Positions 1,689 to 11,200 of a stretch of DNA of 25,072 bases are shown in pieces. Numbering within the stretch: position 1 is the stretch's first letter; every line of letters begins with the position of its first letter. The stretch comes from an uncultured virus (IMG/VR IMGVR_UViG_3300020190_000031). Lineage: Duplodnaviria > Heunggongvirae > Uroviricota > Caudoviricetes. A program made the translations under genes and the position numbers. Location of the stretch: IMG/VR virus record IMGVR_UViG_3300020190_000031, one strand, 5' to 3'. The notes under the pieces were generated by a model. That model was not told the DNA's origin, searched no databases, and saw nothing but the letters and a program-made list of their open reading frames with translations.

Positions 1689-1865
1689 ATGGAATGCATT
1701 AAATGTGGTTCAATTAGCAATTTAGTTGGGTCTGAATCGCTTAATGTCACCATTAGAAGGATCAGGGTTTGTCCCAAGTGTGGCCATAAATTTTTAACAT
1801 ACGAGATTCCGCAAGTGGATTTGGGACGTGCTGAAGCATTTGTCAGGACTGGACACACCCGGTAA
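1689..1865 (+). CDS. NrdR N-terminal-like zinc-ribbon protein (58 aa, no ATP-cone)
   Basis: Hand translation, not in the ORF track: MECIKCGS...IRRIRVCPKCGHKFLTYEIPQ... matches the NrdR CxxC...IRRRRxCxxCGxxFxTYE pattern. Confidence 0.75.
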   Translation: MECIKCGSISNLVGSESLNVTIRRIRVCPKCGHKFLTYEIPQVDLGRAEAFVRTGHTR

Positions 1866-1869
1866 ACTA
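1861..1869 (+). promoter_or_regulatory. putative phage late-promoter motif GGnAnnCTA (GGTAAACTA)
   Basis: The same motif precedes six other genes at 16-20 nt. Here it lies 5 nt before the first leader hairpin. Confidence 0.5.
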
Positions 1870-1874
1870 CACAA

Positions 1875-1938
1875 AGCAGTTGCTTAGCCGACTGCTCGGG
1901 CTTTGCCCGCTCTGGCATTGGAGGTCAATGTCGTTGAG
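1875..1938 (+). ncRNA. candidate structured cis-regulatory leader RNA (3 hairpins plus pseudoknot)
   Basis: Stems AGCAGTTG/CGACTGCT, CGGGC/GCCCG and GGCATTG/CAATGTC. Loop CTTAGC (1883-1888) can pair with GTTGAG (1933-1938). Confidence 0.5.
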
Positions 1939-1952
1939 TTCTGTTTTTATTA

Positions 1953-2324
1953 TTGATTAAAAAAATTTGCACTGCTGCGGCCCTGATTGGTTGCTCTTTC
2001 ACGGCTGCAGTAGAACCGGCTTATGCCGAAAGCCTGGGCTGTTCCTACGCTACTCATTACGGCGTAGGGGATGGTTACCACGGAAAGCGAACGGCCAGTG
2101 GCGAGAGGTTTGATGCTTACGCACTAACAGCAGCGCATCGACACTTGCCTTTTGGAACGAAGCTAAAAATTACAGATCAACTTACCAAAAGGTCAGTGGT
2201 CATTCGTATTAATGATCGAGGTCCATTTACACAGGAACGCACCCTCGATCTGAGCTACGGATCCTTCGCCTCAATAACAAGACCATCAAGGGGCATAACA
2301 GAAATTTGTATTGCAAAGATTTGA
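1953..2324 (+). CDS. rlpA: RlpA-family lytic transglycosylase (double-psi beta-barrel) with signal peptide
   Basis: YHGKRTASGERFD..ALTAAHRHLPFGTKLKI...VVIRINDRGPF...LDLS hallmark motifs; N-terminal signal peptide ending AYA; TTG start. Confidence 0.92.
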   Translation: MIKKICTAAALIGCSFTAAVEPAYAESLGCSYATHYGVGDGYHGKRTASGERFDAYALTAAHRHLPFGTKLKITDQLTKRSVVIRINDRGPFTQERTLDLSYGSFASITRPSRGITEICIAKI

Positions 2325-2335
2325 AATTGAGTTTT

Positions 2336-2368
2336 GGGAGCTATAATTATGTAGCTCCCTCTTTTTTT
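2336..2368 (+). terminator. intrinsic terminator after rlpA
   Basis: GGGAGCTA-N8-TAGCTCCC followed by TCTTTTTTT. Confidence 0.75.
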
Positions 2369-2884
2369 ATGATTTTTTGCTTATCTGAACAAGAAAGAGC
2401 TTTGGCCCTTAGTGAGGCTCTAAGGCGTCAAATGGTGAATGAGCAGCTTATGCTGACAGGACGCAATGGGGGGGCTTCTACGGGTGAACTAGCGCTTTTT
2501 TACCACAAGATTGGTGCTGCTGGTGAAGTGGCTGTTGCATCATATCTTGGCTTGAAGGGTCATTTGTTTAAAGATAAAAATCCCACAAGACATTCATATG
2601 ATTTACCACACAAAATTGACGTAAAAACCAGGGCAAAGCATAGTTATGATTTGATCGTGCAGCTTGATGACAAGAGAGACAAAGTTTACTGGTTGGTCAC
2701 AATAGAAAACAGGGAAATTCGGATCCAAGGGTGGATACCGCATGTAGAATGCGCCAAAGCAGAGTATGTAAAAGATCCTGCCGGAGGTCGCAGGGCCTAT
2801 TTTGTGCCACAAAAAGCCCTTTATTCACCAGAATCATCGACTTTGTGGGTCAGTAGACTGAACAGATTGACAACTGAGGCGTGA
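2369..2884 (+). CDS. phage protein with PD-(D/E)XK nuclease-like motif
   Basis: GAAGEVAVASYLG...DLPHKIDVKTR fits the E..D..DVK pattern; ATG at 2369 follows the terminator. Confidence 0.55.
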   Translation: MIFCLSEQERALALSEALRRQMVNEQLMLTGRNGGASTGELALFYHKIGAAGEVAVASYLGLKGHLFKDKNPTRHSYDLPHKIDVKTRAKHSYDLIVQLDDKRDKVYWLVTIENREIRIQGWIPHVECAKAEYVKDPAGGRRAYFVPQKALYSPESSTLWVSRLNRLTTEA

Positions 2885-6803: not shown

Positions 6804-7199
6804 ATGGACCTAACCAAGTCTGCCAGGCGCCTCTACAAACCATCTGAATTGCAGGAGAAAGAATTGATAGCATACAATATGCTGATGAGGGCGCGTAAAA
6901 GAGCAAAAAGGGAGGGCTATGCCTGTACCATTGGGTTAGAAGATATTATAGTACCCGAAGCTTGTCCGATTACAGGTGAGATTTTGGTGGCTCATAAGGG
7001 TAGATTTTTTCATAACTCGCCAACTTTGGATAAAATTATTCCAGAATTGGGCTACATTCCTGGCAACGTTGCAGTTATCAGTTTTGCAGCGAACAATATG
7101 AAATCAGGATATTCGTTTGATGATTTAAGATTTTACTGTTTAAATATGATCGAATGGATTGATGATTACCATTCCTTAAAAGCCCCCAGACGGAATTGA
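6804..7199 (+). CDS. HNH-superfamily (His-Me finger-like) endonuclease
   Basis: RARKRAK...CPITG...SPTLDKIIPELGYIPGNVAVISFAANNMK matches the common phage SPSLDRI..GY..GNV..IS..AN..K family. Confidence 0.75.
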   Translation: MDLTKSARRLYKPSELQEKELIAYNMLMRARKRAKREGYACTIGLEDIIVPEACPITGEILVAHKGRFFHNSPTLDKIIPELGYIPGNVAVISFAANNMKSGYSFDDLRFYCLNMIEWIDDYHSLKAPRRN

Positions 7200-7302
7200 A
7201 CCATCCTCTCCGCTTTACAAGAGCGGTACATCGCCACTTAATGCTTTGGGGGCCGACTATATGTCTAGTTTATAGTTAAACTAAATAAAATGCATATTAC
7301 AA

Positions 7303-8263: not shown

Positions 8264-11200
8264 ATGGCAAAAGTTAGGATTGCTGATTATCAGGTAAACA
8301 AGGAGAACAACACAATCATTCTGTCTGGCAAGCATAGTCCAGAAAGCATCCTCCTGATTACTAATGTAACGGATGGAATTATCATCTATAATTTTGCTGA
8401 TCCCGCTTTGGGTGCTTCATGTGCCTATACGGAATCTATCAATAAAACATATTTAGTACTTGATTATGATATGTCGGCAATGAGCAATGCCGACAATTAT
8501 CAAATTCTTGTAGATCAGCTTCAAGCATCGGTTGATTTAGTAGAACCATTAATTGATCCAGTTAATAAAATCAGGGTTTCAACTCCGCAAAACTTGATCG
8601 ATACCGATTTTGAATATGGTCTTCAGTCTTCTAAGTGGGAGACATTGGAGCTCGTTAACAATATTCCATCCTTTTATCCGGCTCAGACAAATACAATTCT
8701 CTTGAATGTTGTTTCTGTTTCTGCATTAAATAATTCTAATCTTATTACTGTAATAACTGAATCTGATCATGGTTTGTCTATTGGCACTCCACTGGACATT
8801 AGGGGTCTTAGTTCGCAGACTGCAGAAGGTAAATATCTGATCTTTAGTATTCCCAGTAATACTTCATTCACCTATCAAGCCAAAGCAGTACAAAACAGCA
8901 CTGGAGTAATTTCTGGTTCATATACATCAATTATTCCTGGAGAATTTTATACTTCTAGCAATTTAAATTATAGTATTGATACAGGCATCATCACTGACGA
9001 GCAGGAGCCCTCAGCGCTGACCGTATCGACAGATTATGTTCATGGTTTGAAAAATGATACAAGTGTATATTTAGTAAACTCGGTTGCAAATAGACTTCTT
9101 ACAACAAGCTTTACCAGTTCTGATACAGCACCCGATGGCAGGCCATTTGTAGATTTTGAGGATACTCTTAACCAAGCAGTTAATAGTACCTCTTCATTAA
9201 ATGAAACCAAGGAGATGCAAGGTATATATAGCTATAAATTTAATGCATCAAATGTTGACGTTACAGCAAATCAAATTCTTTGGCCAAATAATAATTTGGT
9301 AGCTGGTGATGCCTTATTATATATACCTCCTGCTGGTGATGCTATAATTGGAGGTTTAACAAAATTCGAGATTTATTACGTCAAATCTGCATCCAGCACA
9401 GCCATTACATTATGTGAAACGACTAATGGTGATTTTACAAATAATGCTGTTATTGATATAACAAGCCCAGGAACTTATAATTTTGGACGTGGAGAGCTGG
9501 TATTGGTGTATGAATTAAGCAGGTTGCGTAGAGGATTTAGTACTTATCAGTGCAATTGTACTTCTGTCTGCCAAGGTGGTTTTTATGGTCCTTGGTGTTT
9601 TGGGGGGTTCGTAACGGTATGTCAAACATGTGTCCAATCAAATGCCACTACCTTCTTAGACACAAGAGCATTCCTTAACGGTGGAGTTGGCTCCGGTAGA
9701 GACTTGATGAATTTCGGCGCTACAAATGCTTTTAATACTGGAACATCTGGCCATTGGGGCTTATCAGGCAAAGAGCCACAATATTACATATTGGCTGGTA
9801 AAACTACTGGGTTACCATCAACGAATGTTTGGGATGGTTTGATTTATTCTTCTTCTTATAATTCTAATTTTACTTTTAATAAAAGCGACCCGGATCCTGA
9901 TGGCTATGATTTTATTGAGGACTGGTCAAGATATCAACATGCTGGCATTCATACTCAATCAACATCATCCAATAGGATGCTGGCCGATACTTCGGGTTTA
10001 TATCAAATTGATAATGTTGGAGCTGGTAATTTTAGTGGCATATATTCCGTACCAGGAGGATATAGCGAAACCTATGCTAATGGAACAAGATTTCTAGTGC
10101 CATTAGAGTTCGACCAAGAACGTGATACTATTTACATTGGCGACCATGGATTAATGGATGGGACTGCGATATCCTTAACAACCAGCTCAGGAACTGCTCC
10201 TGTTGTGCAACAAGCTGCAACAGATGTCAACTCTGTTCCAATATTTAGCACATTAACTAATCCACAGACAATTACAGTATCAGCAGTTACATCCAATAGA
10301 ATTAGAATCAGAGTCAACAATGCTGAAACGCGAGTAAGGACATTAAAAGGAAATTATTCTTTTGCGGCAAGTGTTACCAATCCAACTAGAAATAGTATAT
10401 ATCTTCAGAATCATGGATTTGCGTTAGGACAAACAAGTAGTTTTGCTGCTGGGGCCAATGGCATCTTGCCAACCTTAAGTACAACAACTCCGAAACCAAC
10501 TAAAGACGGCGACCTGGCGGTGGCTATATTTACAGCAACAAACCAAGCAATGTCTGCAATAAGGGGCATTTTGGGCGCAGATGCTGTAAATCTTTATATG
10601 AATGGTACAACTGCTAAGCAGCCATTCATCTCTTCAGATTATACTTTTAATACTGGCACCTACGGATTTAGCTATGGCTTAGATTCAGTAACAGTTAATG
10701 TCCAAAACAATTTCTTTAATTCAACAACTGCCTTGCCCTCTATTAACACTTGGTCTCAAGGCCAAGCATATAACTATCTTGCATCTACTTCATTATATAA
10801 TAAGGGCTATAATTTAGTGCAAACCCCATTTTCTCAGGCACAAGAGACACCCTTTTTTGTAACAGTTTTCGAAATACCTGATCCAAATAATGTTGGTGGA
10901 TTGTATAGCGAAGTCTACGGTAACTTTATTACCTCTGTCAATAACATGCCATATGCAGGTCAGCGCACAAATAATGGCAATGGAACTAGCAGTTTTATTT
11001 CTTTGGCTAATGGATGGCGGTATACGTTTGATGGCGCATATTATAGACCCGCAACAACAGCAAATGGTCGCCACGGATTCTTTCAACTTTCAATGATTAT
11101 TGATAATTCAGGTTATGATGGTTATGTGCCAACATATTCTACTAATATTGTAGACCAGGGGGCACTGGGGCACACAATTAGCGGTTTTGGTGGTGAGCGA

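Follow-up and report, generated by a model that had tools for sequence, protein, structure and literature searches.

Hairpins in the start regions of the bacteriophage T4 genes e (lysozyme), soc, 49 and I-TevI are thought to restrain translation. In T4, such a hairpin hides the Shine–Dalgarno (SD) sequence and the AUG of the very gene it precedes, and an internal late promoter makes an open transcript. The operators of T4 genes 32 and 43 and the RegA sites consist of a structured element followed by an A/U-rich stretch that leads to the start codon, and the ydaO/c-di-AMP riboswitch, as well as orphan motifs, lie upstream of wall hydrolase genes. Exported wall-cutting enzymes endanger a cell that the phage still needs alive, and the way phages restrain them is a real question. 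The subject here is the leader of an rlpA-like gene in a 25,072-nucleotide (nt) stretch of DNA from an uncultured virus (IMGVR_UViG_3300020190_000031), called the window below; all positions are those of the whole stretch, and features lie on its plus strand unless stated otherwise. Judged by comparison with homologous sequences, this is a real and conserved cis-regulatory RNA leader of a wall-enzyme gene, absent from Rfam, and it is a lineage-specific variant of a broad and apparently undescribed cyanophage leader design. Cis-regulatory RNA motifs borne by cyanophages have been catalogued, and the entries include wcaG, manA, PhotoRC-II and glnA (PMC2864571; PMC9964418); none of these four matches the window or the rlpA leaders of cyanophages S-PM2 and S-CREM1. 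An "abiF" match in S-CREM1 lies at 10531-10567, away from its rlpA leader at 38067-38178.

The leader occupies the 87 nt between the stop codon (1863-1865) of an open reading frame (ORF) for a small NrdR-type Zn-ribbon protein and the TTG start of rlpA at 1953. It is composed of the hairpins P1 (1875..1896; 8 base pairs (bp), loop CTTAGC at 1883-1888), P2 (1897..1909; 5 bp, loop UUU) and P3 (1913/1914..1932/1933; 8 bp, including two G-U pairs), and of a linear tail (1936..1952) in which GAGUUC (1936-1941) is followed by an 11-nt A/U-rich spacer (1942-1952) up to the start codon. The last G of the P3 stem and the P3 loop form an SD-like GGAGGU (1920-1925). An upstream AUG (uAUG, 1928-1930) lies within the 3′ arm of P3 and opens a 10-codon upstream ORF (uORF; MSLSSVFIID, 1928..1960) that overlaps the TTG. 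There is no SD near the rlpA TTG, and the rlpA frame contains TGA at 1935-1937, hence TTG is the first canonical start. An earlier reading made from the letters of the window (the sequence-only reading) had described P1, P2 and P3, the SD-like sequence in the P3 loop, the uORF opened by the ATG, the rlpA TTG without an SD and a terminator after rlpA, and each was found where it had been placed.

Like T4 gene e, the window carries an RNA hairpin in the leader of a gene for a phage wall-degrading enzyme. However, a start-sequestering hairpin of the gene e type was rejected, as P3 ends at 1933, 20 nt before the UUG at 1953, and buries an upstream AUG instead. A late promoter inside the leader, as in the gene e model, was not seen by eye, and no formal scan was made. 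The succession of structure and A/U-rich tail, together with the conserved start region, gives the leader a resemblance to the gene 32 and 43 operators and the RegA sites, although no cognate repressor is known for it. With the ydaO riboswitch and the orphan motifs, the window leader shares its association with wall-enzyme genes; it is far smaller, has neither conserved junction nucleotides nor an Rfam match at E up to 10, and carries a structured domain that changes among homologous genes. With Rfam 15 at the gathering threshold, cmscan of the window reported tRNAs only, and with E up to 10 the best match in 1780-2050 was the XIST A-repeat (16.4 bits versus 33 needed, E 0.19), in agreement with the earlier remark that the leader was not recognised as a named Rfam family. 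A blastn search of the leader region against phage records also matched tRNAs only.

Conservation and covariation of the leader

Eleven distinct window-type variants were collected from lake phages, ten of them close and one (L499) divergent. Six were reached via proteins and without use of the leader sequence, by RlpA searches and by a Zn-ribbon search that added the divergent L499/L500, and five via a metagenome pattern that fixes 18 of the 44 bases of the module described below. The pattern scan returned 104 stretches, which came down to 16 real loci and 10 distinct variants including the earlier ones; a 15-mer scan of viral contigs returned 119 stretches, among which the same 5 variants were real and the others chance matches. 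An RlpA scan of genome contigs gave 26 loci, 0 of them cyanobacterial. A structured non-coding leader tied to a phage rlpA, as had been proposed from the window alone, is conserved in the 11 lake-phage variants.

P1 is present in the minimum free energy fold of all ten close variants, with 7-12 bp, four unrelated helix sequences and loops of 3-16 nt. Three of the P1 helices were misregistered by MAFFT and by the covariance model, and P1 is therefore under-counted in the covariation statistics. In P2, both-sided (compensatory) changes occur at 3 of 5 pairs, and pairing is kept in 96% of cells. Over the whole structure, the paired share is 92.1% of cells versus 85.7% after shuffling, and the covariation score is 0.168 versus 0.063; in both measures 0 of 500 shuffles were as high, and slid controls scored 0.002-0.095. 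The P3 stem is invariant in the ten close variants, and its loop varies. In L499, three P3 stem substitutions are found, all of them pair-preserving and one-sided (U-G to C-G, G-U to G-C and U-A to U-G), which hints at an RNA helix rather than a DNA palindrome.

Mean pairwise identity, calculated for nine variants, is 0.64 in the Zn-ribbon coding sequence, 0.67 in the 5′ leader (P1-P2), 0.70 in the rlpA coding sequence and 0.45 at rlpA third codon positions, and it reaches 0.93 in the 44 nt from P3 through the TTG (1912..1955), a figure inflated by the pattern that forces 18 of these 44 nt. These segment identities indicate that P1 and P2 are preserved as shapes and the near-invariant 1912-1955 as sequence. 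All 11 variants have both the TTG start and the uAUG. In seven of the ten close variants the uORF spans 6 codons and its stop ends 4 nt ahead of the TTG; in the other three it spans 10 codons and its stop ends 8 nt beyond the first base of the TTG. In L499 it runs for at least 27 codons. The window-type leader is single-copy in both complete genomes (G002 and G003, one match each to the window-type model R2). The 17-mer at the core of the leader is unique within the window, where P3-like palindromes occur at chance level (4 found versus 3.5 expected), and the idea of a repeated operator or promoter was rejected on these grounds.

A start-region module shared with T4-like cyanophages

In T4-like cyanophages (Kyanoviridae: S-PM2, S-CREM1, S-SRM01, DSL-LC02, DSL-LC03 and more than 100 IMG/VR variants), a leader is found at the same spot, directly before the single exported peptidoglycan-enzyme gene. 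The RlpA proteins of S-PM2 and S-CREM1 share 59% and 55% identity with the window protein, and the final ~30 nt of their rlpA leaders resemble the window leader. The same T4-like leader precedes a signal-peptide PF18013 "phage tail lysozyme" in S-SRM01, DSL-LC02 and DSL-LC03. Its copies lie at L238:624-731 (S-PM2), L239:624-731 (S-CREM1), L240:888-995, L241:870-977, L242:875-982 and in the IMG/VR loci L243-L362. A 16-mer scan of IMG/VR gave at least 106 distinct contexts, 4 of those by chance, and 103 sequences were aligned (alignment A3). RNAalifold identified 12 pairs in this alignment, 8 of them compensatory; one pair, for example, is G-C in 74, C-G in 19 and U-A in 10 sequences. Such substitutions indicate that the T4-like leader is a genuine structured RNA, with a 5′ domain formed by a covarying two-part stem (stem A) that encloses a GAGA-loop hairpin (hairpin B). 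The leader occurs once per genome in 5 of 5 T4-like phages. Among the matches listed that have at least 150 nt of downstream sequence (112 loci), the gene that follows codes for a PF18013 lysozyme 97 times, for RlpA 11 times and for a different protein with a signal peptide 4 times.

The two leader types have in common a single copy per genome, a 3′ module and a helix that abuts or contains the uAUG. The T4-like leader is unlike the window leader in that its 5′ domain is the GAGA-hairpin stem and not P1-P2-P3, most copies lead to an AUG or GUG start and not UUG and follow a terminator and not a Zn-ribbon ORF, and the gene downstream is mostly of the PF18013 type. Searches with R1, the model of the T4-like leader, gave 0 matches at E up to 10 in the window and 9 variant loci; with filters off, the only match in window positions 1700-2100 was one of 2.7 bits on the minus strand. 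The S-PM2, S-CREM1 and S-CBS4 rlpA regions matched nothing relevant in Rfam, either at gathering threshold or at E up to 10.

The leader types were then compared in the top 80 phage RlpA loci, selected on the protein only. R1 was found just upstream of rlpA in 62 of them at E < 1e-11 and more weakly in 7; 6 are window-type loci recognized by R2, and 5 have neither. R2 also gave weak cross-matches, in the right place, to two T4-like leaders (E 0.012 and 0.033). In 76 of the 80 loci, G[AT][GAT]TTC is followed after 10-12 nt by an in-frame start, and the distance is exactly 11 nt in 65 of these 76. The full pattern of the 3′ module (uAUG, U[AC]G, GA[GA]UUC, 10-12 nt, start) is present in the window as AUGUCG-UUG-AGUUC, 11 nt and UUG. 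A uAUG (GUG in L434) precedes GAGUUC in most rlpA contexts, L437 and L440 being without one. It takes the form of a bare AUG-UAG, 17 nt upstream, in most T4-like leaders and of the 6-10-codon uORF in the window form, the two differing by a frame-keeping 3-nt indel. The 5′ domain can also be missing: L434, L480 and L437 have the 3′ module alone, directly after the stop of an unrelated ORF, and in L313 a natural deletion has removed the T4-like inner stem and the GAGA hairpin, leaving the flanks and the 3′ module intact. On this comparison, the window leader is not a member of the T4-like (R1) family as a whole, and belongs to it in part, through the 3′ module. A single start-region design appears to be kept in at least three cyanophage lineages and before two unrelated wall-enzyme families. 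Published work on cyanophage RlpA, riboswitches, cis-regulatory RNA and tail lysozyme, the supplements of which may hold motif lists, was not found to describe this leader.

Several further observations concern the relatives. In S-PM2 and S-SRM01, the T4-like leader is located two small reverse ORFs downstream of the endolysin gene. At columns ~10-40 of A3, upstream of stem A, the T4-like leaders contain a nearly invariant AUGAG-NNNN-UGA and an invariant UUAGAGCC; the former may be a 3-codon mini-ORF or a hairpin loop, and the whole stretch usually lies directly 3′ of a terminator hairpin and T-run. A switch between UAGAG and the 3′ arm of stem A was considered for these leaders and rejected, as the pairing is lost where stem A covaries. 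A third group of rlpA loci (L434, L480, L437, L440 and L461) has a conserved upstream ORF ending in ...EEAER.A.SL, with a purine run of the AGGAGG or GGGGG type and the 3′ module right after the ORF stop; L461 has the ORF without the module.

Proposed translation control and competing explanations

The reading that we regard as best, at about an even level of confidence, is that of a cis-acting translation-control leader for an exported wall enzyme, without a ligand sensor. It is proposed that the leader is built in two layers: P1 and P2 make up a 5′ part specific to the lineage, and 1912-1955 a 3′ part under sequence constraint. P1 and P2 would matter by their shape, and their most likely role is to shield or insulate the rlpA message at its 5′ end. 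P3 would keep the SD-like purines and the uAUG base-paired, while GAGUUC and the 11-nt A/U-rich spacer would deliver ribosomes to the UUG that lacks an SD; a constant spacing before the start codon suggests a role in the initiation of translation. The paired upstream start might serve as a ribosome loading site or as a decoy, the use of which P3 restrains, and the outcome would be a peptidoglycan-cutting exported enzyme translated at a low, set level. The comparison shows the helices, the conservation, the constant spacing and the tie to wall-enzyme genes; what the uAUG does, and whether output is lowered, is inferred. P3, the uAUG, GAGUUC and the 11-nt spacing are mutable targets, and they could offer an entry to SD-independent translation control in cyanobacteria and their viruses. 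For the related leader, the phage records name culturable hosts, Synechococcus WH7803 for S-PM2 and CB0101 for S-CREM1.

The rlpA message may have its own promoter. The GGTAAACTA motif, which the sequence-only reading placed before the hairpins, does precede them, but in 9 of 10 variants it is made up of the last NGG codon and the stop of the Zn-ribbon ORF, which ends in GGTAR, plus 4 nt. All 10 of these variants also fit an extended -10 element there (TAnnCT with G at -14), TA[AG][AC]CT standing after GG, and a -35-like TTGnnn lies 17 nt upstream in 7 of 10. In the window, a scan scored TTGTCA-17 nt-TAAACT with G at -14 (1840..1868) at 9 of 12 matches. If GG-TAnnCT at the end of the Zn-ribbon ORF acts as an extended -10, transcription would start at about 1874-1876, on a conserved AAG where the P1 stem begins. 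L499 has no such -10-like element, for which reason the promoter is treated here as putative, and 3 of 10 variants lack the -35-like element.

The promoter gaps weigh against the proposed translation control, and so does the inflated identity figure of the module. The SD-like run lies 3 nt before the uAUG (0 nt in the T4-like leaders), which is a poor SD spacing. The uORF stop is unfixed: the uORF has 6 or 10 codons in the close variants and at least 27 in L499, and most T4-like leaders show a bare AUG-UAG, so that termination–reinitiation coupling is unlikely to be the common mechanism. The uAUG is mostly paired, in keeping with the proposal, with a mean unpaired probability of 0.17 versus 0.52 for the rlpA UUG; however, the predicted accessibility of the UUG is erratic, from 0.06 to 0.96, and the claim of an open start region was dropped for this reason. 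Nothing in the model explains the fixed GAGUUC itself. The single-sequence folding scores are also weak and count against the proposal: z is -1.67 for 1861-1960, an unremarkable value with 13 of 200 shuffles as good, -2.12 for 1867-1955 with 5 of 200 as good, and between -0.64 and -2.38 in ten variants.

Folding energies within the shuffled range are what would be expected of chance hairpins in an ordinary intergenic spacer without function. This explanation is hardly credible, since it is already contradicted by the comparative data, namely the covariation of P1 and P2, a 44-nt module whose conservation far exceeds that of the coding sequence on either side, and the presence of the module before 76 of 80 homologues. 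The hairpins could instead act as 5′-terminal or intercistronic protectors, or as an RNase site, and set the half-life of the rlpA message apart from the tRNA/Zn-ribbon transcript. The shape-only conservation of P1 and P2, which start 8-9 nt downstream of both the stop codon and the putative -10, would fit an element of stability or processing, as would the terminator of rlpA, by which a one-gene message is bracketed between leader and terminator; yet the near-invariance of 1912-1955 and the fixed 11-nt distance to the start would be left unexplained, and L434-type leaders have no 5′ hairpins at all, so that we consider such an element quite unlikely as the main function. A riboswitch or other small-ligand sensor, as suggested by the sequence-only reading, would have either the three hairpins or the invariant P3 and tail as its aptamer and would be in keeping with a conserved structured leader that has no Rfam match. 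The size range of the smallest known aptamers includes a 44-nt stretch, and some c-di-AMP riboswitches precede wall-enzyme genes. The pseudoknot on which that suggestion drew, between the P1 loop and GTTGAG (1933-1938), does form 6 contiguous pairs in the window but only 2-3 in the other 9 variants, and the covariation seen for P1 and P2 is absent for the loop–GTTGAG pairs; an H-type pseudoknot was rejected because the pairing is specific to the window and the P1 loop, of 3-16 nt, is unconserved. There are no invariant unpaired nucleotides in or between P1 and P2 across the variants that could form a ligand pocket, the invariant bases being located in P3 and the linear tail, where the pairing of the P3 loop with UUCU amounts to 4 weak pairs without covariation. 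No conserved, mutually exclusive alternative fold recurs among the single folds, and pairing of the P1/P2 arms with the tail cannot be conserved because the arms vary and the tail is invariant. Relatives retain the gene and the 3′ module with another 5′ domain or with none at all. This, along with loops and junctions that vary and the absence of a conserved alternative fold, argues against a conserved aptamer, and we judge a riboswitch to be very unlikely. The annotation of the leader is corrected in this respect: there is no pseudoknot and no demonstrated riboswitch.

The main rival to translation control by the leader itself is a protein operator, in which P3 and the tail, as RNA or as a DNA inverted repeat, are bound by the upstream Zn-ribbon protein or by a host factor that represses rlpA; we regard it as rather unlikely. 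It would account for P3 arms and a tail that are fixed in sequence, beyond shape, around a loop that varies. The Zn-ribbon gene lies directly upstream of 11 of 11 P3-bearing leaders, including the divergent L499/L500, its product carries the NrdR nucleic-acid-binding ribbon, and the T4-like and L434-type leaders are without both P3 and the Zn-ribbon gene. However, rlpA is downstream in only 9 of 62 Zn-ribbon loci, the P3 site is single-copy, and the one-sided P3 changes of L499 keep the RNA pairing and break the DNA symmetry. NrdR boxes are paired AT-rich 16-mers, unlike P3. The most widely conserved part, GAGUUC-N11-start, also occurs in phages without the Zn-ribbon protein. Nor did a shared repressor emerge. 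The idea of a CsrA-like GGA hairpin was rejected, as no CsrA was found in the 5 phage genomes tested and cyanobacteria are not known to have it, and RegA was rejected as the common factor, since all 5 T4-like genomes with the related leader encode it and neither of the 2 complete window-type genomes does. This distribution of RegA and CsrA leaves no known phage translational repressor common to both leader types. A bolder combination, which we hold to be unlikely, would take the module and its exchangeable 5′ domains as an undescribed cyanophage-wide class of regulatory RNA for exported peptidoglycan hydrolases and, at the same time, the window P3 as the RNA operator of the upstream Zn-ribbon protein; a DNA-binding fold would then have been given a second use in repressing translation, by which the attack on the wall is timed.

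An intrinsic terminator or attenuator was also tried as an identity for the leader and rejected, as a scan gave no site in 1866-1952. The outer extension of P3 was rejected as a terminator as well: full pairing before a U-rich run is found only in the window, the extension being broken by a C-A mismatch in 8 variants and measuring 3 bp in L011.

Gene neighbourhood and sample context

The window phage is a lake cyanophage of a different kind from the T4-like phages. An IMG/VR record matches positions 1400-2900 with 100% identity. The stretch is present in 24 lake or freshwater DNA sequencing runs, and the complete genomes related to it measure 76-84 kb. The local gene order begins with the 3′ end of the portal gene, followed by a cluster of tRNA-Arg (TCT), tRNA-Met (CAT) and tRNA-Leu (TAA) at 1409-1636, the Zn-ribbon ORF, the leader and rlpA, and virion genes come after a terminator-like 10-bp hairpin (2336-2359) with a T-run (2336..2369) on the 3′ side of the rlpA stop. 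A tRNA-Thr (TGT) lies on the minus strand at 7180-7254. The rlpA leader of S-CREM1 is likewise placed directly 3′ of a tRNA gene.

The Zn-ribbon ORF (1689..1865) encodes 58 amino acids and matches Pfam PF22811 (E 2.4e-8). It corresponds to the N-terminal Zn ribbon of NrdR alone (CxxC...RRxRxCPxC..F.TYE), without the ATP-cone, and such a ribbon-only NrdR mimic may disturb host control of ribonucleotide reductase. Its homologues were found in 62 viral loci, most of them not adjoining rlpA. In L006 (1330-1410), the Zn-ribbon gene carries a ~50-nt tandem duplication at its 3′ end that cuts the ORF short, and GGTAAACTA and the leader are retained.

The rlpA-like gene (1953..2324) encodes a lipoprotein signal peptide with an LIGC lipobox and a DPBB domain (PF03330, E 3.9e-20; also phrog_7930). 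The lipobox cysteine is kept in the RlpA proteins of the window, L003, L006, L145, L171 and L011 and is replaced by serine (LIGS or LTGS) in those of L143, L147, L008 and L203. RlpA thus appears to be a lipoprotein in some variants and a soluble protein of the periplasm in others.

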